A stretch of DNA of 10,827 nt, taken from Nitrososphaerota archaeon. GTDB taxonomy: Archaea; Thermoproteota; Nitrososphaeria; Nitrososphaerales; UBA57. The DNA lies in assembly GCA_013378385.1 (NCBI GenBank), contig JACAFS010000034.1:1-10827 (forward strand), read 5' to 3'. Made by a program: the position numbers and the translations under genes. A model generated the notes under the pieces. The model was not told the DNA's origin, did not search any database, and saw only the letters and a list, made by a program, of their open reading frames with translations. This document shows positions 1 through 10,827 of this stretch, piece after piece; position 1 is the stretch's first letter; each line of letters starts with the position of its first letter.

Positions 1-307
1 CAAGCCTTGTGGCTACAACGACCCAGGATATTGCTCCCATTAGAGCGGCAAGAATTAAATATTCAGTAACAATTTCGGGATTAATAATTCCCTTTCCAAT
101 GGTATTAGCTACTGCTACCCCAAAACCAAATGCTGCTGCAAAATTCCAAAAAGCAGCCCACAATACAGCATGAAATGGCTTCAATACCTTTGTAGAAACG
201 ATGGTGGCAACAGAATTTGCTGCATCATTCATTCCATTCCAAAAGTCAAAAATAAGTGCTACAACTACTATACCAGAAATAAGGAAAAAAAAGCTATCGT
301 AAATCAA
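1..307 (-). CDS. pitA: Inorganic phosphate transporter, PiT/PHO4 family (N-terminal part only; the gene runs off the left edge)
   Basis: Absent from the ORF track because the window edge truncates it. Minus-strand translation from TTG (307-305) gives (M)IYDSFFFLISGIVVVALIFDFWNGMNDAANSVATIVSTKVLKPFHAVLWAAFWNFAAAFGFGVAVANTIGKGIINPEIVTEYLILAALMGAISWVVVATRL. This contains the PiT signature FDFxNGxNDAANSxAT and hydrophobic TM helices. An in-frame TAA lies at 331-329, and TTG at 307 is the only canonical start before the conserved motif. The gene begins 7 nt after the stop (317-315) of the DUF47 gene, which is the classic DUF47-Pit pairing. Confidence 0.85.
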   Translation of the reverse strand, partial: MIYDSFFFLISGIVVVALIFDFWNGMNDAANSVATIVSTKVLKPFHAVLWAAFWNFAAAFGFGVAVANTIGKGIINPEIVTEYLILAALMGAISWVVVATRL

Positions 308-314
308 AACTAGA

Positions 315-938
315 TCACGAATATTTAGTTACAATATCTCGTAGAACGTCAGCTACATCTTCACAATAATCAACACTTTTTTCTAATTTTTCTAATATTT
401 CTTTGTGTTTAAGAAGTTCTTTAACATCGTCTATTTGAAAGATTTCAGAAAGGGTTACATCATGTAGATTGTCAGCTTGGTTTTCGTATGTATGAACATT
501 TATCACATGTTTTTCAATGGTTTTGCGATCCATAACTCGAATTAATTTAAGAGCGTTGTCTATTTCAGAAACAGATTTTTCAACTATAACAGGAAATGAA
601 GTCATGTATTCAAGTTTGTCTACAGGACGCATTAAATGCATTCGATTAGTAACATCCCAGATAGCGTCTAAAACATTATCATATAATATTGTAAGTTTAG
701 AAATATCTTCTCGATCTATCGGTGTAATAAAGGACTTGTCAAGCATAGTATAGATCTCATGTACAATTCTATCTCCTTCATGCTCCAAGTCTTCAATTGT
801 ACTTAACTTATTAGAATTATCAAATACGCTACTTAATTCAATGGATGCTATTCTAACTTTACTAGAGAGTTCTTCAAGTAAATCAAAAAATTTTGTTTCC
901 TGTGGAATTAATATATCCTTAATGCCCATTCTTTTCAA
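315..938 (-). CDS. PhoU-like phosphate transport regulator, DUF47/COG1392 family (Pit accessory protein)
   Basis: 207-aa acidic, all-helical ORF (KFFDLLEE... N-terminus, ...DYCEDVADVLRDIV C-terminus) typical of PhoU-divergent DUF47 proteins. It lies directly upstream of the PiT gene on the same strand. The track start at 938 is a TTG. The ATG at 929 (MGIKDIL...) is better spaced from the TATA-like CATATATG at 953-960, so the true start may be 929. Confidence 0.8.
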   Translation of the reverse strand: MKRMGIKDILIPQETKFFDLLEELSSKVRIASIELSSVFDNSNKLSTIEDLEHEGDRIVHEIYTMLDKSFITPIDREDISKLTILYDNVLDAIWDVTNRMHLMRPVDKLEYMTSFPVIVEKSVSEIDNALKLIRVMDRKTIEKHVINVHTYENQADNLHDVTLSEIFQIDDVKELLKHKEILEKLEKSVDYCEDVADVLRDIVTKYS

Positions 939-952
939 TTAAAAATAAATAA

Positions 953-960
953 CATATATG
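953..960 (-). promoter_or_regulatory. TATA-like box for the DUF47-pit operon
   Basis: Palindromic CATATATG spans about -24 to -31 relative to the ATG at 929. The same spacing is seen at other genes in this window, consistent with leaderless or short-leader archaeal transcripts. Confidence 0.4.
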
Positions 961-972
961 CTTATCACAAGG

Positions 973-990
973 GATATATAGATATATACT
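973..990 (+). promoter_or_regulatory. Tandem TATA-like boxes (GATATATA x2) for the AbrB-PhoU gene
   Basis: An exact 8-nt direct repeat GATATATA occurs at 973-980 and 981-988. The second copy spans about -25 to -32 relative to the ATG at 1013. Confidence 0.45.
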
Positions 991-1012
991 ATAACCATAT
1001 GGTAAAATATAG

Positions 1013-2065
1013 ATGTTTAAGCGTAAAAATGTAGAAAATCACTCTGAAATGAGAAAAATACAATATTCCGGAAAATCATCGTTTACTCTTGCACTGCCAA
1101 AAAAATGGGTTATAAATCAAAAATTAAAGGCTGGAGATCAGTTATCTGTAACCACAGACGGTACAAATAATTTAATATTATCTTCTGAAAAGAAAAAAAC
1201 TTATGTCAAAAAGCAAACAAACATTCTACTCGATGAAACGAGTGAAAAAGGACATATAGAACGAAAGATTATTGCGACGTATATTTCGGGATACAATCAG
1301 ATTCACATACGAAGTAAGCATAAAAGAATGACGCCGCAACAAAGATCAATCATAAAGAAGTTAGTGCGCGATAAGCTAGTTGGGACAGAGATAATAGAGG
1401 ACTCGAACTTGATTATTTCTATACAAGTAATTCTAGATCCGTCAGAGCTTAATATTGAGAATACGTTAAGAAGAATGTCTGTCATCACACAAGGAATGCA
1501 CGGTGACATAATTTATGCAATAAAGAAACACGATATTGAAATGTGCAAGGAGATTATTAGAACAGACGATGACGTAGATAGATTTGGTCTTTATGTAATA
1601 CGACAATTACGATTTTCTTTAGAGAATGATAACTCATTAGAGTTAGCAAATTCGGTTGATAAAATCTACTGTCTAGGTTATAGGATGATAGCGAAGAGTT
1701 TAGAAAGGATTGCAGATCACGCGAGTTTAATGGGACAGCAATTAATGAGTTTGAATAAACCATTGCCAAAATCCATAGTAGTTCAATTGGATGAATTTTC
1801 TGAGTTTTCAAGAGGGAATTTAGAAAAGTCCATGAGAGCGTTATTGAATAAAGACTACAAGCTTGCCGACAAAGTTGTTACTACTTGTTTGGAAGCTCCA
1901 AAGAAGGAGCTAAAGATTTTGAACTCAGATTTCAAGATGACTAAGGATCAAGATGCATGTGTAGTCTCTATATTGGAGCATATTAGGCGTGTGTCGGATT
2001 ATTCGGCGGACATTGGCGAAGTGGTATTAAATCTGACAATCGATGAGAACTTGAAAAAGCAGTAG
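1013..2065 (+). CDS. phoU: Phosphate uptake regulator, N-terminal SpoVT/AbrB DNA-binding domain fused to a tandem PhoU domain
   Basis: 350-aa ORF. The N-terminus RKIQYSGKSSFTLALPKKWVINQKLKAGDQLSVTTDGTNNLIL is a swapped-hairpin AbrB-type motif. The remaining roughly 220 aa are helical with PhoU-like repeats (e.g. ERIADHA..., RRVSDYSADIGE). This architecture is common in archaea. The gene is divergent from the DUF47-pit operon. Confidence 0.85.
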   Translation: MFKRKNVENHSEMRKIQYSGKSSFTLALPKKWVINQKLKAGDQLSVTTDGTNNLILSSEKKKTYVKKQTNILLDETSEKGHIERKIIATYISGYNQIHIRSKHKRMTPQQRSIIKKLVRDKLVGTEIIEDSNLIISIQVILDPSELNIENTLRRMSVITQGMHGDIIYAIKKHDIEMCKEIIRTDDDVDRFGLYVIRQLRFSLENDNSLELANSVDKIYCLGYRMIAKSLERIADHASLMGQQLMSLNKPLPKSIVVQLDEFSEFSRGNLEKSMRALLNKDYKLADKVVTTCLEAPKKELKILNSDFKMTKDQDACVVSILEHIRRVSDYSADIGEVVLNLTIDENLKKQ

Positions 2066-2075
2066 AATTATTTTT
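2054..2075. terminator. Candidate bidirectional oligo-T terminators between convergent genes
   Basis: The convergent stops lie only 2 nt apart (2065 and 2068). A T5 run on the + strand at 2071-2075 follows the phoU stop. An A5 run at 2054-2058 (T5 on the minus strand) follows the arsC stop. Archaeal termination typically uses oligo-T tracts. Confidence 0.3.
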
Positions 2076-2490
2076 CTGATTTGGAGAGTTCCTGAAGCAA
2101 AATATCGACTTTTTCTTTAATTACATCCCTGACTTCTCTGAATTTTTCAATGGGATGAGAAACAGGGTCTTCTATCATCCAATCTTGCGTTTTTGGGATA
2201 AAAGTAACTGGGCAAAAATCTGATGCCATGCACCCCATGCTGATAATTACATCTGCTTCAGACATCATTTCATCGGAAAGAATCTTTGGGTCGGAATGAT
2301 GATCTATATTTAATTCCTTCAAGACTTCCAACGCAGAAGGGTTTACATCGTCTGCTGGAACGGTACCTGCGCTAGCAGCGGTTGCATCGACTGCATAGTT
2401 AGATGCAAGTTCGTTAAACAGAGCCTCGGCCATCTGGCTACGGCATGAATTTGCAATGCAAACAAACAGTACATTAATTTTCTTTTTCAT
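2068..2490 (-). CDS. arsC: Arsenate reductase, thioredoxin-coupled ArsC / low-molecular-weight phosphotyrosine phosphatase family
   Basis: 140 aa. The P-loop is CX5R at the N-terminus (VLFVCIANSCRSQMAE: C11...R17). A second Cys pair follows a hydrophobic strand (IISMGCMASDFCPV: C87, C93), as in the pI258/Bacillus ArsC C82/C89 relay. The DP motif and FREVRD helix (IEDPVSHPIEKFREVRDVI) are present. Confidence 0.75.
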   Translation of the reverse strand: MKKKINVLFVCIANSCRSQMAEALFNELASNYAVDATAASAGTVPADDVNPSALEVLKELNIDHHSDPKILSDEMMSEADVIISMGCMASDFCPVTFIPKTQDWMIEDPVSHPIEKFREVRDVIKEKVDILLQELSKSEK

Positions 2491-2530
2491 TCCTTGAGGA
2501 TTACAAATCAGTACTAATAGAAATATATTG

Positions 2531-3154
2531 TTATATTTGTGAGAGTTTTGACCTTATGAAACCAATTGCTACGAATGCTCCAGCCGTACTCATCAAGATG
2601 TTTTTTGAAAGAGAGAATACCCAGATTCCAACTACTCCAATATCAGATGTAAGAACTGAGATCTCGCTAAATGAAAAGCCTATAGCGAATAGACCGGCAG
2701 TAACGATTGCGGATTCTGCAGCTCCACTTAACATGGAACCAATCACTATCATTTTGTTAGAGATTGCATTTTTTGCATAATCTCCGCGTCGTAACCAGAA
2801 TTCATAGACTAGACCTGCGCCAATGGAACCTGGAAGGTAAAGATAGGAAGCAGGGGCAGGAACCATGAGCAGTAGTAATCCACTGACTATACTGAAGACT
2901 AATGGTCCGTTCTGTGTTCTCAGTTGGGAAGCAATAAGAACCATACAGAATGCACGGAAGAAATGTGCGCCTGAACCTCTCAACAAAGGACCAATTGTTG
3001 CAGAAACAACATAAGATAAGACAAAATATACAGCTGTAAACATTGTAGCGTATGCAATGAGTTTGACTCGTGAAGTTTTTAGACTAGTGGCATTAGAAAA
3101 TAATTCCATAACAAAACTATTCAATATTGTATTCAAACAATCACCATGATTCAA
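2531..3154 (-). CDS. Uncharacterised polytopic membrane protein (about 6 TM; loosely resembles an ECF-transporter S component)
   Basis: The ORF has six hydrophobic segments (e.g. VKLIAYATMFTAVYFVLSYV, GPLVFSIVSGLLLLMV, MIVIGSMLSGAAESAIVTAGLFAIGF). I recognise no diagnostic motif. The track start at 3154 is TTG, and the first ATG is at 3109 (MELFSNATS...). No TATA-like box lies at the usual spacing for either start, so the gene is probably co-transcribed with FTR1, 40 nt upstream. Confidence 0.6.
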   Translation of the reverse strand: MNHGDCLNTILNSFVMELFSNATSLKTSRVKLIAYATMFTAVYFVLSYVVSATIGPLLRGSGAHFFRAFCMVLIASQLRTQNGPLVFSIVSGLLLLMVPAPASYLYLPGSIGAGLVYEFWLRRGDYAKNAISNKMIVIGSMLSGAAESAIVTAGLFAIGFSFSEISVLTSDIGVVGIWVFSLSKNILMSTAGAFVAIGFIRSKLSQI

Positions 3155-3194
3155 TCTAGATAATAAAGAATTTTCGGATTTTCAAAATTGATTA

Positions 3195-4076
3195 TCAATA
3201 ACTTGCAAACGTTTTACGGTAGAAACGTCCTGCCCACGCCCAATAGCTAAGATATCCTATAACACGAATCCATTCAGGATTGCCATCATAACCAAGTAGG
3301 GCCTTGAACCAAACGCCTATCGCTCCCTTTTCATGAAGAGGATGTGATTTTTCAGCTGGATTAATGTCCCAGGCATAAGAGAACAAGAAGTTTGTTGGTT
3401 CTCCGTCGGCGTCATAACCAACTCCAGCGTATTCAGCTGCTTCGACTAATTCATGTAGTCCGTAGCCAAATAGACCTGCTGCAAATACTATTAATATTAA
3501 ACTGGTATATTTGAAGAATTTTCCAATATCCAAATTGTAAATTTGTCTTTTAGCTGCAAGTGATAGAACTAATGCAACAACAACTGCAAGAATTGAACCA
3601 ATTATTGTACTACCGATATCGATTGAAAGTAATGGAGCAAGGAAAAGAACTGTCTCTAGTCCTTCTCTGGCCACTGCAACGAATGCGAGGAACACTAAAG
3701 AGTTTGCGGATTGTGAAGTAATGGCAAAGTCCATCTTGGATTCAAGTTCGCCCTTCATTGAACCAGCGTGTTTAGCCATCCAGATAATAACATAAGATAA
3801 TACGAGTGTAGCAGAAATAGAAGCGACTCCTTCGAACATTTTCTCCCAGAATCCCGCTAATTCACCTAGAAGTATTATAATTCCTCCACCTAAAACTAGG
3901 CTCAGTGCTATCGCACCGATAGTACCATAAGCTAGATATTTTTGATATTCTTTATTGTTGGTTTTATCCAAATAAGCCCACATGATACCAACAATCAACG
4001 CAGCCTCAATTGACTCACGGAGTACGACTAGGAATGGCGCTACAAGCGCAGATCCGATTGATATTCCGTCTGTCAT
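3195..4076 (-). CDS. High-affinity iron permease, FTR1/EfeU family
   Basis: 293 aa, about 7 TM. Both hallmark RExxE motifs lie in TM helices: LRESIEAALIVG (res 19-30) and VAREGLETVLFLAP (res 135-148). The conserved C-terminal region LLGYDGNPEWIRVIGYLSYW resembles bacterial EfeU. Confidence 0.9.
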   Translation of the reverse strand: MTDGISIGSALVAPFLVVLRESIEAALIVGIMWAYLDKTNNKEYQKYLAYGTIGAIALSLVLGGGIIILLGELAGFWEKMFEGVASISATLVLSYVIIWMAKHAGSMKGELESKMDFAITSQSANSLVFLAFVAVAREGLETVLFLAPLLSIDIGSTIIGSILAVVVALVLSLAAKRQIYNLDIGKFFKYTSLILIVFAAGLFGYGLHELVEAAEYAGVGYDADGEPTNFLFSYAWDINPAEKSHPLHEKGAIGVWFKALLGYDGNPEWIRVIGYLSYWAWAGRFYRKTFASY

Positions 4077-4097
4077 ACAGCAAGTTAATAACGGACG

Positions 4098-4105
4098 TTA
4101 TATAA
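4098..4105 (-). promoter_or_regulatory. TATA box of the FTR1 operon
   Basis: Palindromic TTATATAA spans -22 to -29 relative to the FTR1 ATG (4076). Confidence 0.5.
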
Positions 4106-4155
4106 GGTTCACGATGTAAATAAAAATATGTTAACAGCGTGAATTAACAACAAAT

Positions 4156-4164
4156 CTATATATC
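4156..4164 (+). promoter_or_regulatory. TATA box of the HTH/erythrin-like regulator gene
   Basis: CTATATATC spans -23 to -31 relative to the ATG at 4187. Confidence 0.5.
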
Positions 4165-4186
4165 GTAAATCAACAATAACTAGTCT

Positions 4187-4915
4187 ATGCAAAAAATGAA
4201 AAATGTTGAACAGATTCTACCTGCAGTTAGATCGTTGTTGGCAAAGGAATTAATCCAGAGTCATAATGTAACAAAGGCAGACGTTTCAAAGATATTGGGA
4301 ATATCTCCTGCTGCGGTAACGCAATACACAACAAACAAGAGGGGAAATTACGCTGATGAACTTGGAAAGAACCGCGAGGTTAGACCCGTAATCGCAAGTC
4401 TTGCTGAGCATTTTTCAAACAAGAAGAAGAAAGAAGGAGAAATGAGGAGGAACATGACGATTATTGAGACTTCGGAAAATATACTTGCCATTATTAACAA
4501 TCAAGGAATCAAGGATAAAGAAAAAAAGATGGATCCTAATACTAGGATTCTGCAGGACAGAGTTGAAGCTGAACTTCATGAGGCAAGAACGAGTTTGAGT
4601 ATGGCAAATAAGATAGAAGACGGTTTTGGAAAACTGCTCTTCAAAGGAATTGCGTCAGACAGTATCCGACATGCAGAGATAGTTTCTCAGGTAATCAGAG
4701 ATCAAGAGACAGTTGGCAGTTTCAGATTAGATAAACAATCAAAGAGATATCTAAAACAGATGATTCAAGAGGAAGAGAATGCCAGTGAACAGTTGATGGT
4801 TAAATTAGTTAAGACAAAACATCCAGCGGTCCGTGCTTTGCTGCAGTCAATCGACCAAGATGAGATGAAGCACAAAAAGATGCTGAGATCTCTCAAAAAG
4901 TATCTAGAAGCCTGA
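4187..4915 (+). CDS. Putative transcriptional regulator: N-terminal helix-turn-helix (COG2522-like) fused to a C-terminal rubrerythrin/ferritin-like four-helix domain
   Basis: 242 aa. The HTH is VTKADVSKILGISPAAVTQYTTNKRG (res 28-53). A Lys-rich linker follows. The C-terminal roughly 125 aa consist of four predicted helices with erythrin-type ligand patterns: VEAELHE (res 126-132), DSIRHAE (158-164, degenerate), QEEENASE (194-201) and DEMKH (225-229, canonical ExxH). Confidence 0.65.
   Translation: MQKMKNVEQILPAVRSLLAKELIQSHNVTKADVSKILGISPAAVTQYTTNKRGNYADELGKNREVRPVIASLAEHFSNKKKKEGEMRRNMTIIETSENILAIINNQGIKDKEKKMDPNTRILQDRVEAELHEARTSLSMANKIEDGFGKLLFKGIASDSIRHAEIVSQVIRDQETVGSFRLDKQSKRYLKQMIQEEENASEQLMVKLVKTKHPAVRALLQSIDQDEMKHKKMLRSLKKYLEA
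4874..4899 (-). terminator. Candidate terminator of the propeller operon, embedded in the 3' end of the convergent regulator gene
   Basis: On the minus strand, just after the TAG stop (4906-4904), there is a T5 run (4899-4895), then the 10-nt palindrome TGAGATCTCA (4884-4893), then a second T5 run (4878-4874). Confidence 0.35.
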
Positions 4916-6328
4916 CTTTCTTAGCATAATAATAGCTGACAATACGCACAATGATGTTCCTATTAGAAATATAGGATCAGTAAGTCCAGTAGAGATTTCC
5001 ACCTCTACAAAGGAACCAGTGTAATAACTCAGATCCATAGTTGCAGCCCCGATTGTCAGGTGTGTTATGCCTGTAGGAAGGTTCCTGGCCGCTTGTACAG
5101 AATAGGATACGATTGTTTTGGCTGAAGGGTCGCTGTGTGATGGGGTAAATTCAACAGTTATTCCATCAAGAATACCTGTCACACGTTCGTTTCCACGTGC
5201 AAGGAAGAAGACGTCAATTTCGGAAAACAAGTTAAACTGTGTTGTTGTGGATTGGGGCCTGCTAACAACGATTCTGTTTGAGTCGAAAATGATATTTGTC
5301 GGTTCGGGAATTTGTGAATTGAAGAATCCAATTTTGTTCTCGTTTCTTTCTACGAACCATATGTTTCCGTTAGAGTCTGAGGTCAAGGTTTGTGTGAATG
5401 TATTGTCGGTCGGAATCTTGAACTCGGATATTGAATTTGTTTGAGGGGATATTTTGATTAATCGATCTGCTCGGAATTGCGTTGTCCATATGTTGCCGGC
5501 GTTGTCACTGATTATCTGGTATGTTCCTGCAGTAAGTGTTCCTGTTGCATACTCCGTAATTTCATTTGTATTTGGATTAAGTTTTCCGATGAGGCTTGTT
5601 CTGAATTGGCTGTACCAGATATTACCGTCGTTGTCAATTGCAAGTCCAATTGGATTCACGGTTTCACTTCCGACTCCGTCACTTGGAAGAATAAATTGCG
5701 TAAATTCGTGTGTATAAGTGTCAAATTTTGTCAGAATTCCAGGGCCGGATTCAACAAGCCATATGTTTCCGTCTTTATCAAATTCAAAATAGCTTGGACT
5801 GGAGATGTTTGACGGAATCCTGTATTCGGTCAGAGAATTTACATCATTTATCTGCACACTTGTAAGAAAACTGCGTCCGAATTCCGTGAACCATAATGTA
5901 CCTTCGTTATCGAACTTCAAATCCCAAGGCAATGAATCATCTTCGAGTTGAAGAAATTCGTTGAATTCGCCTGTTTCTGGATCCAGAGTCCTTATCTTAT
6001 TCTCTGTAGCATCAGTGAACCAAATCATTCCATCAGGGCCTACCGTTATCCCCCACATCTGAAGTGTTTCTTGATAGAAATAACGCTCTTCAGGTGGATA
6101 GAGATGATAGGTAGTAAAATTCGAGGTTTCTGTGTCAAAATGCACGATTGAGGGATTTAGACGCTGAGTAAACCATATGTCTTTATTGTGGGCAGTGATT
6201 GCATACGGATTGATGAAAGTTCCGTTTGTAGGAATATCAAATTCTGTTATTGGACTTTCTTGAGCAAAGATAGGTTCTACAAGGAAGAATAACAGAAAGA
6301 TGGTTGAGAGAAATATTATATTTTTCAT
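4904..6328 (-). CDS. Membrane-anchored extracytoplasmic 7-bladed beta-propeller, streptogramin lyase (Vgb, COG4257)-like, with a C-terminal beta-sandwich-like domain and TM anchor
   Basis: 474 aa. The signal peptide is MKNIIFLSTIFLLFFLVEPIFA|QE. Seven repeats of about 42 aa carry the motif D..GN(I/L)W(F/Y)T(E/Q)...(N)KIG. These are followed by about 100 aa rich in beta-formers, then the TM anchor IFLIGTSLCVLSAIIML and the tail RKSGF. The start lies 14 nt after the stop of the upstream gene and has no TATA of its own, so co-transcription is likely. Confidence 0.75.
   Translation of the reverse strand: MKNIIFLSTIFLLFFLVEPIFAQESPITEFDIPTNGTFINPYAITAHNKDIWFTQRLNPSIVHFDTETSNFTTYHLYPPEERYFYQETLQMWGITVGPDGMIWFTDATENKIRTLDPETGEFNEFLQLEDDSLPWDLKFDNEGTLWFTEFGRSFLTSVQINDVNSLTEYRIPSNISSPSYFEFDKDGNIWLVESGPGILTKFDTYTHEFTQFILPSDGVGSETVNPIGLAIDNDGNIWYSQFRTSLIGKLNPNTNEITEYATGTLTAGTYQIISDNAGNIWTTQFRADRLIKISPQTNSISEFKIPTDNTFTQTLTSDSNGNIWFVERNENKIGFFNSQIPEPTNIIFDSNRIVVSRPQSTTTQFNLFSEIDVFFLARGNERVTGILDGITVEFTPSHSDPSAKTIVSYSVQAARNLPTGITHLTIGAATMDLSYYTGSFVEVEISTGLTDPIFLIGTSLCVLSAIIMLRKSGF
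5315..6250 (-). repeat. Seven tandem protein-level blade repeats (Vgb/NHL-like)
   Basis: The blade cores are NKDIWFTQ, DGMIWFTD, EGTLWFTE, DGNIWLVE, DGNIWYSQ, AGNIWTTQ and NGNIWFVE, spaced about 40-45 residues apart. The repeats are diverged at the DNA level. Confidence 0.7.
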
Positions 6329-6342
6329 GCAAGTTTTCTCAT

Positions 6343-8688
6343 TTAATTAGAACGATTTTTTCTAACGACATACATAGAGAAGGCAATTGCAATCACAGCA
6401 ATTCCCAATGAAACTATGGAAAGAATGTTTGGATTTGTTTGAGATGTCTGTGTATTTTCTTCAGAACCGTCAGCTAGAGTATATGCTTGTAATATTCCTG
6501 TAGTTCTTTGGCCGAATTCACCTGCGCCACCGCTAGTTATGAAAAGTGTAGCTTGTCCATACGCATTGGAACCTATTGAGACTCCAGCGCCACCTAATCC
6601 GCCAGTAGTAAATATTCTAAGTAATTCTCCTGTCTCTTCGTCGACTGCATGAATCTTTCCGAGTCGATCAGGCACAAAGACTATTCCTCCACTTGTCGTA
6701 ACTGCACCGTATTGGTTTCGATTTTCCATTTCGTAAACCCATTTTACTCGTCCGTTGGATGCGTCGATAGCATATAATGAAGCGTTGCCAACGTGGAATG
6801 AATCAAAATACATTGGTCCAGCAACGTGATGGAATATATCAGCTTCTCCATCTTTGTATGGAGCTCCTTCTTCCTCTATGTAAGAAGTACAGAAGGTTTG
6901 TGTTACAACGTAAATCGTATTATGTGCAAATGCAGGGGCTGCATCAATGCCTCCTTGGAATCCAGGACATACTGGTTTACGAATTAGATTATCTTGAGAA
7001 AGTTCCATGTCGGCGTTGTTTCCCATATCGGCCTGTTGTGTGTTAATTGCAGGAGGGCCTACCCGAATGGATTCGTAGATAGGTTTTCCTGTAGCTGCAT
7101 CAAGAACATGAACGAGGTTTGTCTTTGAGCCGACAATTACTGCTTTTTGTGTGCTATCGCCTGATTCAATTTCGGCAAGGATTGTAGACCAACGAGATTC
7201 GTGATAATAGATATCATGAGTTACAATTTGATAGTACCAGTTCATTTCACCGGTATTTGCGTTTAAGGATACAACAGATGAAGTGAAGAGATTTGGTCCG
7301 GGTCGCATGTCGCCAGGAACGTCAGGTGTAGGAGCATTTGTTGTAAAGAATATGTCGCCCGTATCTTCGTCCAAGGCAATAAGAGTCCATACACTGCCTC
7401 CTCCGATCCAATTACAATCGTGAAGTCCTTCCTTGTGTTCGTCGTGTCCTTCGTGTCCTTCTCCGTGTTCTTCAGCTTCATGTTCTTCGAATTCCTCGAT
7501 GCCAGATTCTATATCAGTAAGAATTGCAAGTAATTCATCAGTACTGGATATAGGACTAAGCATATCCTCTAGTTCGTGGACATGTTCTTCGACCTCATGC
7601 ATAATTTCAGTTAGATCATTTCCGTGAGGATGTTCAATTTCGTGTGTAACTTCGTCTACATGGTTTTCTATTTCAGAAACGATGCTCAAGATTTCGACAG
7701 CCATTCCCATATTCAGAGGAAGTCTAGAAGCTTTTTCCTCGAATTCATGAACGTTTGTTGCGATTTCAGCCATGATTGCAAGTAATTCTGCGGAATGTTC
7801 TTCTTCGTGTTCTTCTTCTGCTACTTTTTCACATTTTCCCCAATCCCAAGGATAATTGTCAAGGTTGCCTTTAGAAACTAAATCAGCTGCCCAGTCCTCT
7901 TCATTGCCTGTGGGTGGAATTGTTTCCCATCTCCAGACAAGTTCTCCGGTATCTTTATCATAAGCAGAAATGAATCCACGTTCTCCCGTGAAGCCTCCGC
8001 CTCCAGTAGGTCGTGTAATGAGAAGATTATTGTATTCAATTGGAGCAAAACTTGCCCAATATATTCCTGTGTTCCCTGGAATGTCTTTACATGTATCAGG
8101 AATGGTAACCAATACTTCACCAGTCATTGGCTCTAATCCGTATATTGTACAATCACTAGCTTGCATCCAAACTTTTTCATCAAAGTAATCTATGCCATGT
8201 TGGGCATACACTTTTGCCCACCAATTCTTTTCGTCGAATGAACCAATTGGTGCAGCAAAACGCCAAAGTAGTTGGCTGCTTTCTGCATTTAGTGCATAAA
8301 GCACATTGAATTCACTAGCAATGTAAACAATTCCGTTTACAACAAGTGGAACTGTTTGCACACCAGTAGGTACATGTGGCACCTCAAAATTAAAACCTCC
8401 TTCTCCATGTTCATGGCCGTCGCCTCCTACAGAAATAACTTCTCCAGGTACTCCGCCTCCGCTTCCCCAATAGCCAGGGACTTGAAAGATCCAGCGTAAT
8501 TCTAAATCGTCAATGTTGTCTTTGTTGATTTGTGTCTGTGGACTAAATCCTGTATTGGTTCGGTCGAATGCAGGGTGTTCCCAATTCAGACCTTCCATTT
8601 GTGCAGTAACCTGAAATATCGAAGACGGAATAAGCAATAAAAATATGAATAAGGTAGAAACTGTATAGATAATGTTATTATTTTTCAT
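6343..8688 (-). CDS. Membrane-anchored quinoprotein (methanol/ethanol dehydrogenase family, PQQ-like) 8-bladed beta-propeller carrying two His/Glu-rich insertions
   Basis: 781 aa. It has an N-terminal signal/TM segment (IIYTVSTLFIFLLLIPSSIFQVTAQ). MDH/ADH-family motifs seen by eye include NWEHPAFDRTNTGFSPQTQINKDNIDDLELRWIF, PLVVNGIVYIAS, AYDKDTGELVWRW and IGGGSVWTLIALDEDTGDIFFTTNAPTPD...MRPGPNLF...LNANTGEMNWYYQIVTHD. The C-terminal TM is ILSIVSLGIAVIAIAFSMYVV with tail RKNRSN. It is a clear paralog of the upstream 596-aa gene. Confidence 0.8.
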   Translation of the reverse strand: MKNNNIIYTVSTLFIFLLLIPSSIFQVTAQMEGLNWEHPAFDRTNTGFSPQTQINKDNIDDLELRWIFQVPGYWGSGGGVPGEVISVGGDGHEHGEGGFNFEVPHVPTGVQTVPLVVNGIVYIASEFNVLYALNAESSQLLWRFAAPIGSFDEKNWWAKVYAQHGIDYFDEKVWMQASDCTIYGLEPMTGEVLVTIPDTCKDIPGNTGIYWASFAPIEYNNLLITRPTGGGGFTGERGFISAYDKDTGELVWRWETIPPTGNEEDWAADLVSKGNLDNYPWDWGKCEKVAEEEHEEEHSAELLAIMAEIATNVHEFEEKASRLPLNMGMAVEILSIVSEIENHVDEVTHEIEHPHGNDLTEIMHEVEEHVHELEDMLSPISSTDELLAILTDIESGIEEFEEHEAEEHGEGHEGHDEHKEGLHDCNWIGGGSVWTLIALDEDTGDIFFTTNAPTPDVPGDMRPGPNLFTSSVVSLNANTGEMNWYYQIVTHDIYYHESRWSTILAEIESGDSTQKAVIVGSKTNLVHVLDAATGKPIYESIRVGPPAINTQQADMGNNADMELSQDNLIRKPVCPGFQGGIDAAPAFAHNTIYVVTQTFCTSYIEEEGAPYKDGEADIFHHVAGPMYFDSFHVGNASLYAIDASNGRVKWVYEMENRNQYGAVTTSGGIVFVPDRLGKIHAVDEETGELLRIFTTGGLGGAGVSIGSNAYGQATLFITSGGAGEFGQRTTGILQAYTLADGSEENTQTSQTNPNILSIVSLGIAVIAIAFSMYVVRKNRSN
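7414..7833 (-). other. Inserted His/Glu-rich helical module (res 286-425) bracketed by Cys286 and Cys425
   Basis: The paralog reads PGDWGENDLIGGGS where this protein reads PWDWGK-C[138 aa]C-NWIGGGS. By my count the insert holds about 16 His, 37 Glu, 7 Asp and only 4 Lys/Arg. It has an internal duplication (see findings). Confidence 0.8.
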
Positions 8689-8708
8689 TGAAATATTAAT
8701 AACTTAAT

Positions 8709-8718
8709 AATATATTAA
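8709..8718 (-). promoter_or_regulatory. TATA-like box of the 781-aa propeller gene
   Basis: An AT palindrome AATATATT/TTAATATA spans about -21 to -30 relative to the ATG at 8688, inside the 56-nt gap after the upstream paralog. Confidence 0.45.
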
Positions 8719-8744
8719 TATGATTTTTCTATCAGAAATAATGC

Positions 8745-10535
8745 CTAATTTTTCCTGTAGAATCTCAAGAATGCCAAATACAGTATTCCTACTATCGATG
8801 TAAGAGCTAGCGAACCAATTATACCACGTCGAGAAATGCCATCGTTGTCAGCAGTAGATTCTTCAGGTAGGCCTAATGCAGTTATAATACCTGATTTGCT
8901 TCCACCCGTTGCAACGAATAAACGCATATCACCATTGGCATCGGATGCAATTGTTACGCCAGTATTTCCTGCGCCATTCATAGGAATTTTTTTCAACACA
9001 TCGCCAGTTTCTGAATCAAGAGCGTAAAAGTTTCCAGATATGTCGACAAGATAAACGACTCCGCCACTTACAGTAATACCACCTTGATACCTGGACTCGA
9101 TTGGAAATGTCCATTTAATTTGGCCGGTGGAAACATCGATTGCATGAACTGTAGAGCTCTGTCCTGCCAATGAAGGTTCTATTCGAAAGCCATTAATCAG
9201 TTTTTCTTTGTAAGGAATCTGTCCTGCATTGAATTTCGAACAATAGTTTTGGCTTGCAACAAAGAAAGTGTCATCAGCGAATGCCGAAGTGCTGGCGGCT
9301 CCGCCGAAAGCTCCTGGACAGTATTCATTTCCCTCCAGAACATCCTGAGATAGATTCATGTCGGCATTGTTTCCTTGGTTGGTGTTGTATGCACTGATTT
9401 TTTGTGCGCCGAAACTTATAGGATTGTGTAGAAGTTCCCCTGTTGCGGCGTCTAAAACATATGCATAATCTCCTTTTGTGGATGCGAGTATTACTTTTCT
9501 TTCTTCTCCGTTTATTGTAGCATTAGCAAGAATCAATGAACGTGCTGGTTCATGACCGTTAATGTCATGAGGAGTTGTTTGATGGTACCAAATCATTTTA
9601 CCAGTATTCGCATCAAGAGCGACAATTGAATTAGAGTAGAGATTTGGACCTGGTCGAAGTGATGCATCATAAGCTAATGCAGGAGCGCCAGTTGGGAAAT
9701 AAATTATCCCAGTAGATTCGTCCACTGCTACCAAGGAGAATATCGAGCCTCCGCCAATGAGATCGTTCTCTCCCCAATCTCCCGGATACGGATTTATGTT
9801 TCCTTTTGCGGCATCCTTAAAATCCCATTCTGGATCTCCGCCACTTGGCGGGACAGAGAACCATTGCCACAAGAGTCTGCCATTAAACTCGTCATAACCA
9901 GCAATGAAACTTCTTCCGCCTCCTCCGCCTGCTGATACTCTGCTAATTATTATAGTCTCGAAAAATGTTGGAGAGTAATGCCCTACATACTTTCCTGAAT
10001 TACCTGGAACGTCGCTACATGTATTCAGTATCTCGTTTTTTACTTCGCCAGTGAATGGATCAAACGCAAAGATATGGCAGTCGTTTGTCTGCATCCACAA
10101 TAAATCATGGAAGAAACTGATAGAATGTTGCGCCTCCAGCATTGACCAGTCTTCAGAAAGTACAAGTTCGACAGGATCGTATTGGAATGTCCAGAGTTCT
10201 TCGCCGTTTAGTGTGTTAAGAGCTGTAAGTTTATTCGATTCAGTAACAAAATACAAGAGTCCGTATACAGCGATTGGTGGGGCATGTGTACCGAATGCCA
10301 TACGCGCTCCAGGGATTGGAGCTGGTCTTTCGGGTGATTGATAGATCCATTTCAGTTCTATATTTTGAACATTTTCCCGAGTTATAATTTGTTGAGGGTT
10401 GTGTGCAGAATTAAAAATATCAAAAGCAGGTTGTGTCCAGTTAATACCTTCAGGGGATTGTGAAATAGATTGAGGAATAAAGGTAAGCAAAAGAAGCGTC
10501 AACAGAATAGTGATAAATTTCATATTTTTTATCAT
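8745..10535 (-). CDS. Membrane-anchored quinoprotein (PQQ-like) 8-bladed beta-propeller, paralog without the insertions
   Basis: 596 aa. The signal peptide is MIKNMKFITILLTLLLLTFIPQSISQ. It shares the family motifs of the 781-aa protein: INWTQPAFD...ELKWIYQ, AGYDEFNGRLLWQW, IGGGSIFSLVAVDESTGIIYFPTGAP...LRPGPNLY...LDANTGKMIWYHQTTPHD, and NQGNNADMNLSQD...CPGAFGG. The C-terminal TM is IIGSLALTSIVGILYLAFL with tail RFYRKN. Confidence 0.8.
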   Translation of the reverse strand: MIKNMKFITILLTLLLLTFIPQSISQSPEGINWTQPAFDIFNSAHNPQQIITRENVQNIELKWIYQSPERPAPIPGARMAFGTHAPPIAVYGLLYFVTESNKLTALNTLNGEELWTFQYDPVELVLSEDWSMLEAQHSISFFHDLLWMQTNDCHIFAFDPFTGEVKNEILNTCSDVPGNSGKYVGHYSPTFFETIIISRVSAGGGGGRSFIAGYDEFNGRLLWQWFSVPPSGGDPEWDFKDAAKGNINPYPGDWGENDLIGGGSIFSLVAVDESTGIIYFPTGAPALAYDASLRPGPNLYSNSIVALDANTGKMIWYHQTTPHDINGHEPARSLILANATINGEERKVILASTKGDYAYVLDAATGELLHNPISFGAQKISAYNTNQGNNADMNLSQDVLEGNEYCPGAFGGAASTSAFADDTFFVASQNYCSKFNAGQIPYKEKLINGFRIEPSLAGQSSTVHAIDVSTGQIKWTFPIESRYQGGITVSGGVVYLVDISGNFYALDSETGDVLKKIPMNGAGNTGVTIASDANGDMRLFVATGGSKSGIITALGLPEESTADNDGISRRGIIGSLALTSIVGILYLAFLRFYRKN

Positions 10536-10546
10536 ATCTTTATATT

Positions 10547-10827
10547 ATGACCAGCAATAATAGTTTTGTGCGAAATTATATTATCATAGGCGTCGTTATT
10601 TTAGCTGCCATAGGTATTGGCTATATTTTGATTGGGAATGTAAACAGTCCTGAACAAAATATAAGCAGACCGGTAGTGGAAAAAGGATTCTTCAATGTAG
10701 AATCTGAACAAGAGATTGTACAGACGATGTTTGGTGAAAAAGTTGAAGCAAGATTTGTGCTTTCTTCAGAACTCGGTTTTGAATCAGATGTTAACTTCGT
10801 AATCAAGACTCCGTTGATTGGAGTGAA
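10547..10827 (+). CDS. Hypothetical protein with N-terminal signal anchor (5' part only; runs off the right edge)
   Basis: Absent from the ORF track because it is edge-truncated. The frame from the ATG at 10547 stays open to the window end: MTSNNSFVRNYIIIGVVILAAIGIGYILIGNVNSPEQNISRPVVEKGFFNVESEQEIVQTMFGEKVEARFVLSSELGFESDVNFVIKTPLIGV. It has one N-terminal TM helix followed by a soluble, acidic region. I recognise no family. Confidence 0.55.
   Translation, partial: MTSNNSFVRNYIIIGVVILAAIGIGYILIGNVNSPEQNISRPVVEKGFFNVESEQEIVQTMFGEKVEARFVLSSELGFESDVNFVIKTPLIGV

Follow-up and report, generated by a model that had tools for sequence, protein, structure and literature searches.

A beta-propeller protein of a Nitrososphaerota archaeon carries, in one of its loops, a Cys-bracketed insert rich in His and Glu that is predicted to fold as a four-helix bundle. 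To judge from the orthologous genes, this module is a cassette with copy-number polymorphism, being present in 0, 1, 2 or 4 copies in closely related strains. The gene lies on contig JACAFS010000034.1 (assembly GCA_013378385.1), of which we analyzed positions 1 to 10,827; this stretch of 10,827 nt is referred to as the window. The domain is real, well delimited and found described in none of the databases and literature that were searched, and it may serve to capture metals at the cell surface. The host gene, its tandem paralog and the parts of the insert are as follows (aa, amino acids; AF2, AlphaFold2 model; pLDDT, predicted local distance difference test score).

6343..8688, minus strand: host gene, 781 aa, an 8-bladed quinoprotein-type beta-propeller with an N-terminal signal/anchor and a C-terminal transmembrane helix (open reading frame, PF01011, Foldseek, AF2)
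8745..10535, minus strand: tandem paralog, a propeller of 596 aa without the insert or the bracket Cys residues (open reading frame, BLASTP, Pfam)
7414..7833, minus strand: Cys-to-Cys insert C286-C425, 140 aa (BLASTP break against the paralog, composition, 369-nt in-frame gap against the L084 ortholog)
7831..7833, minus strand: codon of C286, the first bracket Cys (found with every loop insertion and in no insert-less ortholog)
7795..7830, minus strand: N-terminal acidic/His linker, residues 287-298, EKVAEEEHEEEH (in segment 258-294, where pLDDT is <50; TTC/GTG-rich DNA)
7729..7788, minus strand: helix 1, residues 301-320 (AF2 helix 3-22; heptad register; near-invariant H16, E19 and E20)
7633..7710, minus strand: helix 2, residues 327-352 (AF2 helix 29-54; invariant E34, I42 and E43)
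7558..7614, minus strand: helix 3, residues 359-377, MHEVEEHVHELE, the most conserved helix (AF2 helix 61-79; invariant H71, H73, L75 and E76, near-invariant H66)
7465..7539, minus strand: helix 4, residues 384-408, duplicate of helix 1 (AF2 helix 86-110; invariant E96, E101, F102 and E103; shared 54-nt repeat)
7417..7464, minus strand: C-terminal His/Gly/acidic linker, residues 409-424, GEGHEGHDEHKEGLHD (pLDDT <50 over 409-431; aligns with the short loop of L084)
7414..7416, minus strand: codon of C425, the second bracket Cys, inside the conserved GLHDC-NW motif (ortholog Cys scoring)

The boundaries of the insert are sharp. In BLASTP alignments, the homology between the host and its paralog ends at ...PWDWGK and restarts at IGGGS. 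Without residues 286-424 the host reads DWGKCNWIGGGS where the paralog reads DWGENDLIGGGS, 12 residues each, and deletion thus restores the loop length of the paralog, as had been proposed in an earlier reading of this DNA (the sequence-only reading). The same reading had pointed to the Cys residues at the two ends of the insert, neither of which is present in the paralog. All 25 sequences that carry an insertion in this loop (the window protein and P0001-P0024) contain both, and neither was found in the insert-less orthologs that were scored (0 of 7). This perfect co-occurrence fits a C286-C425 disulfide, which is probable from the sequence comparison; the Cys counts are even in both paralogs, and the host is predicted to be extracytoplasmic. 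At the DNA level, the window gene and its ortholog at locus L084 (protein P0012) are 90% identical and differ by one in-frame gap of 369 nt, located directly after the first Cys codon. L084, which has the same neighbor genes as the window, retains a 17-residue loop (CEAHDEDEEQHEGLHDC); the portion kept by such short-loop alleles is the C-terminal linker (residues 409-424).

The 138 residues between the bracket Cys residues include 37 Glu, 16 His, 7 Asp, 3 Lys and 1 Arg, which reproduces exactly the composition counted earlier, and the insert has a net charge of -40. Glu accounts for 27% of the insert and 5.9% of the protein elsewhere, and His for 11.6% and 2.0%, respectively. The many H/E pairs mentioned in the sequence-only reading amount to 9 HxxE and 8 ExxH pairs.

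The module core (residues 299-409) is predicted by AF2 to be a four-helix bundle, with a pLDDT of 93.7 and a predicted template modelling (pTM) score of 0.86 for the module alone, and a pLDDT of ∼74-89 within the full-length model. In that full-length model the pLDDT falls below 50 for segments 258-294 and 409-431, by which the linkers are predicted to be disordered. A folded four-helix unit was what the sequence-only reading expected, with disorder and a missing H/E register as the counter-indication; for the bundle, the pLDDT is high and the register is conserved.

Positions within the module (H16, H66, H71 and so on) are numbered according to the AF2 module model built from 11 module copies of orthologs, which together contain 44 helices. 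In these 11 copies, the a and d positions of the heptads are hydrophobic in 44 of 44 helices. Among the 44 helices, 39 and 34 have Glu at the e positions, and Glu also occurs at c and f; His is found at b positions (H16, H66 and H73) and g positions (H71, H45 and H105). In the model, His and Glu therefore coat the module surface and the grooves between the helices, not the core. A single 17-residue pattern, LL[A/E]Ix[H]EIEx[H]VHE[F/L]EE, fits all four helices, and their summed pairwise identity is 39, as compared to 12.4 +/- 3.0 after shuffling (0 of 20,000 within-helix shuffles reached 39). The module is therefore a fourfold repeat of one helix. Helices 1 and 4 had previously been described as duplicates with 11 of 19 identical residues at an offset of 84 codons; the offset stands, the number of identities is 10 of 19, and the duplication extends to all four helices as copies of one pattern. 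An exact 14-mer, ATTGCAAGTAATTC, is indeed present at both 7523-7536 and 7775-7788, and lies within a 54-nt direct repeat (7483-7536 versus 7735-7788, 70% identity) that encodes helices 4 and 1.

The H/E register is kept across the orthologs surveyed and across four divergent module types, as the sequence-only reading would have it. Specifically, although the module types share only 46-50% identity, H71, H73 and six Glu residues never vary among them, and H16 and H66 are near-invariant. Of the three regions compared, the propeller has the lowest ratio of nonsynonymous to synonymous substitution rates (dN/dS), 0.05-0.07; the module reaches 0.33-0.51 and the linkers 0.4-0.9. These sequence comparisons indicate that the module is under constraint, which is weaker than that on the propeller.

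The length of the loop was measured between DWGx and xxIGGGS in the orthologs, and a metagenome scan with module patterns returned at least five true loci. The following alleles were found.

Loop of 1 aa, no Cys pair: no insert (P0025, P0027, P0028, P0031-33)
Loop of 16-23 aa, Cys pair: short acidic His loop (P0012, P0015-24)
Loop of 137-147 aa, Cys pair: 1 module (window, P0002, P0003, P0013, P0014, L089)
Loop of 290-292 aa, Cys pair: 2 modules (P0004-11, L090)
Loop of 516-566 aa, Cys pair: 4 modules (P0001/L001/L002, L006, L091-93)

The modules of independent 4-module alleles from different samples follow the same A-B-C-D order, with a more divergent variant of the first module in L006 and L093. 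The 2-module alleles have the order B-A, and P0014 has D only. An assembly artefact was rejected as the source of the multi-module alleles because the 4-module forms occur on independent contigs from different samples. On a neighbor-joining tree of the propeller alone, module-bearing alleles are scattered and stand beside short-loop alleles (window/P0012, P0014/P0015-19 and P0013/P0023), and zero-module alleles occur in every subclade. A strain-specific low-complexity expansion of variable length had been considered a possible refutation by the sequence-only reading; the insert length does vary by strain, but it does so in whole folded modules (0, 1, 2 or 4) and not as a low-complexity expansion. 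In the metagenome-assembled genome (MAG) binchicken_co46_310, a GTDB representative, the orthologous gene is split (L005, 8980-11495), the open reading frame stopping at 11157 and the similarity continuing to 11495, which is probably due to a frameshift or an assembly error.

The linkers consist of (GH)n, HE and HD tracts, which are very long in 4-module alleles, and near-identical alleles differ in linker length by (GH)n units. The linker DNA at 7796-7835 and 7454-7493 forms a direct repeat (73%) that flanks the module. Together with the (GH)n length changes, this repeat provides a substrate for recombination. A 9-nt repeat was also detected with Tandem Repeats Finder at 7430-7461, in the DNA of the C-terminal linker. 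A foreign origin of the insert was rejected, since its GC content, GC content at third codon positions and Glu codon use are equal to those of the rest of the host gene; the insert is therefore home-grown.

Searches for relatives of the module led back to its own ortholog group. It matched no Pfam or NCBIfam family even at E≤10, and a module profile run against 1.84 billion representative proteins retrieved the own ortholog group only (4.7e-77, plus one fragment). Six other profile matches, with E-values from 1e-6 to 3e-4, were His-free coiled-coil repeats. The exhaustive hidden Markov model search is the valid test for homologs here, as a word-indexed protein search, whose prefilter was swamped by acidic low-complexity words, gave one fragment. 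Foldseek comparison of the module with the PDB gave nothing below E 0.25. The nearest fold neighbors are generic up-down bundles, namely pectin methylesterase inhibitor (template modelling [TM] score 0.79), single-chain ROP and copper storage proteins (Csp; TM-score 0.61-0.67), and by sequence the PDB entries that come closest are binary-pattern bundles designed de novo, with non-significant scores (E 0.025-1.8). In literature searches we found no description of a His-rich or four-helix insertion in enzymes dependent on pyrroloquinoline quinone (PQQ) or in Thaumarchaeota, in line with the earlier statement that no quinoprotein with such a module had been described.

EfeO/imelysin and AztD had been brought up for comparison in the sequence-only reading, and ferritin-like proteins and hemerythrin as families to check; relationships to these were not borne out by any Pfam or NCBIfam match or any significant fold match. 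For EfeO/imelysin (Peptidase_M75), none of 11 module copies gave an M75 match at E≤10, none of the top 50 Foldseek matches belonged to this family, and the GxHxxE context is absent. A ferritin-like, rubrerythrin or hemerythrin di-iron bundle was rejected as there was no Pfam match and all a/d core positions are hydrophobic, with His at b/g and Glu at c/e/f. A Csp-type copper store was rejected in view of helices without Cys, a hydrophobic core, a fold match with E>0.5 and no sequence similarity. Since the conserved His and Glu residues are not in the bundle core, a buried site of the ferritin or Csp type is unlikely, and heme binding by the module was rejected because its conserved His residues are at b/g positions outside the core. 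Finally, the NCBIfam matches of the two propellers and of the neighboring Vgb-like protein at E≤0.01 included no AztD model, and membership of the AztD family was rejected.

The host itself belongs to the quinoprotein-type propellers. It matched PF01011 with E 5.5e-52 and 177.7 bits (cutoff 26.7), and its fold matched 1yiq, 1kb0 and 6dam (PQQ-dependent alcohol dehydrogenase [ADH] and XoxF) with Foldseek E-values of ∼1e-25 and target-normalised TM-scores of 0.63-0.72. Its scores for TIGR03075 (197.9 bits, cutoff 480) and for the 'empty quinoprotein' model TIGR04528 (181.8 versus 650) stayed below the cutoffs. The AF2 host model has terminal helices at 3-34 and 755-780, and the combination of a signal peptide and a C-terminal transmembrane helix indicates that the host is extracytoplasmic. 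The tandem paralog has a constant length of 596 aa in a 216-member cluster. Two further elements of the host bear on the insert.

7387..7404, minus strand: GGGSVW strand, residues 429-434, directly after the insert (HMMER alignments to 6dam, 1kb0 and 1kv9)
8371..8469, minus strand: second His/acidic loop, in blade 1, residues 74-106 (...GGDGHEHGEGG...; pLDDT <50, no counterpart in the paralog alignment)

The GGGxxW strand follows the insertion point at a distance of 4 residues and has its aligned counterpart in the GGGxxW of XoxF and ADH structures; the position directly ahead of this strand that was assigned to the insert by the sequence-only reading is thereby upheld. W434 is near-invariant in the orthologs, and its counterpart in the 6dam alignment is the Trp of GGGTTW. 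In methanol dehydrogenase, the Trp after GGG stacks under PQQ. By analogy with this PQQ-stacking Trp, the module would be placed at the rim of the central funnel of the propeller.

The pocket at this funnel differs from that of the PQQ dehydrogenases. The vicinal Cys-Cys pair is not in the host, as the CC of XoxF 6dam aligns with A-K in the pairwise alignment or S-K in the profile alignment. Likewise, the catalytic Asp or Asp-x-Asp is not in the host, where Y-Y-H-E aligns with the W-D-Y-D of XoxF and the N-W-D of 1kb0; H496, in the Y-H-E that takes the place of the D-Y-D of XoxF, is invariant in the family. The Glu that is a Ca/lanthanide ligand in the GGE-x-G-V-R-G segment is not in the host either, the position being G, F or L within GGGGFTGERG, and the N-R-G of PQQ dehydrogenases is replaced by an invariant Q-H-G. 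The pocket has thus gained invariant His residues. The blade-1 loop is longer and Cys-bracketed in P0014, P0016, P0018 and P0022 (GCIGADHDEEEDEAHDEELHEC). The occurrence of a Cys-bracketed acidic His tract in the blade-1 loop of some orthologs implies that the same design arose at two loops.

Heterotrophic marine Thaumarchaeota (HMT) have been reported to carry 4-19 divergent, membrane-anchored and highly expressed PQQ-dehydrogenase genes without the Cys-Cys motif, for which blue copper proteins are the proposed electron acceptors; some HMT quinoproteins retain the DYD motif (PMC7300363). The source organism likely belongs to this group, since one MAG has several PQQ-like genes.

The genes around the host and its paralog include the following.

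4904..6328, minus strand: Vgb-lyase/NHL-like propeller, 474 aa, with a C-terminal transmembrane helix, third gene of the same-strand trio (Pfam PF24684, E 6.5e-40)
10547..10827, plus strand: N-terminus of a transmembrane-anchored cupredoxin-domain protein, cut by the window end (translation matches the L001 and L084 cupredoxins, which carry Pfam Cupredoxin_1 and Copper-bind)
3195..4076, minus strand: FTR1/EfeU-type iron permease with the RExxE motifs RESIE and REGLE (Pfam PF03239, E 2.1e-47)
4187..4915, plus strand: helix-turn-helix (HTH) plus rubrerythrin/ferritin-like protein, 242 aa, divergent from FTR1 (Pfam Rubrerythrin, E 1.9e-5; HTH_3 weak)

The conserved cluster of the marine clade consists on one strand of genes for a 463-aa membrane protein, a 274-aa His/Met-rich protein, a 124-aa Cys-rich protein and the cupredoxin, and on the divergent side of those for the 596-aa propeller, the variable propeller and the Vgb-like propeller. 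The Vgb-like gene is syntenic in L001, L002, L005, L006, L084 and L085, and the cupredoxin gene is a conserved divergent neighbor in the same six loci; the isoelectric point (pI) of its product is ∼4.5. The start codons of the cupredoxin and 596-aa propeller genes are ∼11 nt apart. The Vgb-like gene, which is of the six-bladed type, overlaps the convergent regulator gene by 12 nt at its 3' end. The 463-, 274- and 124-aa genes, located upstream of the cupredoxin gene in L001 (4666-7386, minus strand) and also in L005, L006, L084 and L085, have no Pfam family; the 463-aa protein is polytopic and the 274-aa protein carries MEMGGMNMD and MNMEEEHEHGEEEE. Together, these three genes look like a copper- or metal-handling set.

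The FTR1 permease scored below the 255-bit cutoff of NCBIfam EfeU (E 1.3e-53, 182 bits). Its gene and that of the HTH/ferritin-like protein are present in the window, L001, L002, L005 and L084 and both absent from L085, while L006 ends within the HTH gene; across loci the two genes are gained and lost together. The 242-aa HTH/ferritin-like protein is a candidate metal (iron)-sensing regulator. The AT-rich spacer of 110 nt between these genes contains two inverted repeats, ATAACG-GA-CGTTAT at 4088 and TGTTAA-N9-TTAACA at 4129. A polytopic membrane protein of 207 aa with no family match is encoded between FTR1 and a gene resembling ArsC and low-molecular-weight phosphatases (LMWP) in the window (2531-3154, minus strand); it is syntenic at 62-78% identity, even in L085, which has no FTR1. 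The stretch 315-2490 encodes a PhoU_div/DUF47 protein, a 350-aa PhoU-domain protein with an N-terminal AbrB/MazE-like domain, and the ArsC-type LMW phosphatase, and in L001 and L002 the pstSCAB-phoU genes follow these phosphate/arsenate-related genes.

A different metal-gene context surrounds the insert-less orthologs. A NikR-like gene of 127 aa (ribbon-helix-helix plus NikR_C) is located directly upstream of them in L003 (9549-9932), L086 (6186-6569) and L008 (4832-5212). In L003, genes for ZIP and ABC-3 transporters and a His-rich propeller are found within a few kb, with a major facilitator superfamily gene also nearby, and L086 has an ABC-3 gene. The L003 propeller (5332-6774), a 480-aa protein of the DUF5074 type adjoining ABC-3, has His-rich patches (EEEDEHGAGKHHKES and AGHGHGGGHGRS) and a C-terminal MHEEHGH, and recalls AztD. 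The more distant propeller homologs that were examined had no metal-gene context.

Taken together, the data are best accommodated if the insert is a surface metal-capture and hand-off cassette on an extracytoplasmic propeller, a reading based on sequence and models that we favor without being convinced of it. It fits best because it accounts for a Glu/His bundle with (GH)n leashes, for a Cys-closed base at a His-enriched pocket and for two metal-gene contexts, and the link of the cassette to metals is independently supported by the gene neighborhoods. What we infer is the disulfide, the binding and hand-off of metal, and which metal it is. The bundle would expose ∼44 carboxylates and 16 imidazoles on its solvent face, around a hydrophobic core, and would be held by two flexible leashes rich in His, Glu and Gly, its ends being pinned at the funnel rim by the probable C286-C425 disulfide. 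The polyanionic His/Glu surface and the leashes could then bind trace-metal cations from very dilute seawater with moderate affinity and high capacity, several ions per module, at sites presumably formed by the HxxE pairs and by the stripes of Glu (e) and His (b, g) that face between neighboring helices. Subsequently, the leashes may swing the loaded bundle over the funnel, where metal would be passed to His, Asp and Glu residues of the pocket (GLHDC, QH164, HD492 and H496/E497) or to membrane transporters. Finally, the number of cassettes (0, 1, 2 or 4), which is polymorphic among co-occurring strains, would set the capacity. If one metal had to be named for this clade, it would be iron, given that Glu dominates the chemistry and that FTR1 and the ferritin-like regulator are adjacent; Zn, Ni and Cu are nearly as likely.

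Several points weigh against metal capture. Neither its sequence nor its fold assigns the module to a known metal-binding family. Glu/His-rich surfaces can also arise from helix-favoring soluble sequence, and the nearest PDB matches are designed bundles. Judged by dN/dS, the module is under weaker selection than the host, and it is dispensable, since module-less alleles are common and adjoin module-bearing ones on the tree. The gene contexts suggest different metals in different clades. The FTR1/EfeU-type permease does lie 3 kb away, as the sequence-only reading had emphasized, but it is a separate transcription unit from the propeller genes and is missing in the syntenic L085, which keeps the propeller cluster. 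A comparison of the FTR1 and propeller promoter regions for a shared operator motif yielded trivial AT-rich 9-mers alone.

The main rival to metal capture is a near-neutral, self-propagating expansion, in which an acidic His loop grew by slippage or unequal recombination into folding helix units of no specific function whose copy number drifts. Several features of the module speak for it: the fourfold repetition of one helix pattern, the direct repeats of linker DNA on either side, linker lengths that vary by (GH)n units in near-identical alleles, and the copy numbers of 0, 1, 2 or 4, all subclades having alleles with no module. The module dN/dS, 5-8 times that of the propeller, the lack of homologs elsewhere and the likeness to designed binary-pattern bundles point the same way. 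However, this dN/dS is still <1 (0.33-0.51), and specific His and Glu residues are invariant across types at 46-50% identity, a divergence that implies long retention. The A-B-C-D order kept in independent 4-module alleles from different samples and the strict conservation of the Cys pair and the GLHDC motif likewise speak against it, and we consider this explanation unlikely. A further possibility is that the module acts as a lid or as a docking domain in a true quinoprotein dehydrogenase, where it would gate the funnel, steer cationic substrates or dock a cupredoxin acceptor. Its insertion at the funnel rim beside the pocket strand and the conserved divergent cupredoxin gene would suit such a role, as would the blue copper acceptors proposed for thaumarchaeal PQQ dehydrogenases (PMC7300363). 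Yet the cupredoxin is itself acidic (pI ∼4.5), which is electrostatically unfavorable against a module charge of -40, and electrostatic docking of this neighbor was rejected for that reason; moreover, the host is devoid of the catalytic Asp, the metal-binding Glu and the Cys-Cys pair, and a lid essential for catalysis would not range from 0 to 4 copies among close relatives. We regard this role as somewhat less likely still than the near-neutral expansion.

Less probable again is that the module is a reservoir for the hard cation of the enzyme itself, a local store of Ca2+ or lanthanide from which the PQQ site would be loaded in seawater with picomolar rare earths. The 44 carboxylates per module, the lanthanide-dependent XoxF and PedH among the closest solved relatives and the DYD kept by some HMT quinoproteins (PMC7300363) are compatible with this idea, but the host has Y-H-E in place of the XoxF D-Y-D and no Glu ligand, and the conserved His residues and (GH)n linkers favor borderline transition metals over Ln3+ or Ca2+, which makes such a store improbable. 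Variation of an exposed envelope region that evades viruses or alters adhesion seems very improbable: while the protein is extracellular and anchored, its module is patchy in presence or absence across strains and the neighbor genes are far more conserved, what varies is the copy number of a conserved unit rather than its sequence, the H/E pattern is conserved, and the loci examined had no virus-related context.

A broader scenario can be built on the metal-capture and hand-off cassette. The domain would have been born de novo in a loop by fourfold amplification of a helix and would now be a copy-number-tunable 'metal antenna' of abundant uncultured deep-ocean Thaumarchaeota, with a host propeller converted from a dehydrogenase to trace-metal acquisition and hand-off, feeding FTR1-, ZIP- or ABC-type importers, and with 0-4 cassettes according to the metal regime. 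This scenario is possible, although we lean against it in its full extent. If the module binds metal, it would represent a new protein solution for scavenging from sub-nanomolar seawater. For Nitrosopumilus maritimus, no Fe-specific transporter and no ferric reductase have been identified (PMC6776035). If the scenario is true, at least some of the many 'PQQ dehydrogenases' of heterotrophic marine Thaumarchaeota may not be dehydrogenases (cf. PMC7300363). What is new is a domain with no relative outside its ortholog group, which forms a cassette of 0, 1, 2 or 4 copies scattered over subclades and occurs in differing metal-gene contexts. The population-level modularity of the domain is unusual, and a metal-related function is plausible on the strength of sequences and models. 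Whatever its function, this is an unusually clear natural case of domain birth, of which living relatives hold all stages: the short Cys-closed loop, the four-copy helix bundle, and arrays of 2 and 4 bundles. A small module that is predicted to be stable might also serve as a metal-binding scaffold.

Among known systems, the closest precedents are the His-rich loop of ZnuA and the disordered His-rich tracts that the AztD propeller metallochaperones have at their termini or as insertions (PMC6689063). These share with the present protein an extracytoplasmic host, which in AztD is a beta-propeller, and His/acidic tracts near a metal site whose disorder is predicted or observed. Low-affinity capture and hand-off have been proposed for such tracts (PMC6689063), and the linkers and short-loop alleles described here look exactly alike. 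In contrast to ZnuA and AztD, the tract has here grown into a folded four-helix bundle with up to four repeats and, unlike AztD, the host is a quinoprotein-type 8-bladed propeller with no NCBIfam AztD match. The neighboring FTR1, the ZIP and ABC-3 genes near insert-less orthologs, the low-pLDDT His-rich linkers and the blade-1 loop invite a comparison with the AztD arrangement by analogy only. Csp1 and Csp3 are also small up-down four-helix bundles that act as high-capacity metal stores (TM-score 0.61-0.67, probability ∼0.9, E>0.5), but they bind Cu(I) on Cys residues that line the core, whereas the module helices are Cys-free with a hydrophobic core and outward His and Glu. The EfeO/imelysin partners of FTR1/EfeU resemble the module in being helical and extracytoplasmic, in their HxxE pairs and in the presence of an FTR1/EfeU-type gene 3 kb off; they differ by the M75 signature and GxHxxE, both absent here, and the FTR1 gene is outside the operon and missing in L085. 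The host shares its 8-bladed fold, a PF01011 match above the cutoff and the Trp of GGGxxW with XoxF, MxaF, type II ADH and the 'empty quinoproteins' of TIGR04528, but conservation does not extend to the Cys-Cys pair, the metal-binding Glu or the catalytic Asp, and both NCBIfam scores are far under their cutoffs. Lastly, the designed bundles WA20/SUWA and S-824 have the same idealised polar/non-polar heptads and His/Glu-rich polar faces. As these are synthetic proteins, the likeness is one of pattern alone and implies no homology; it hints at a recent evolutionary origin of the module as a domain born from repeats.

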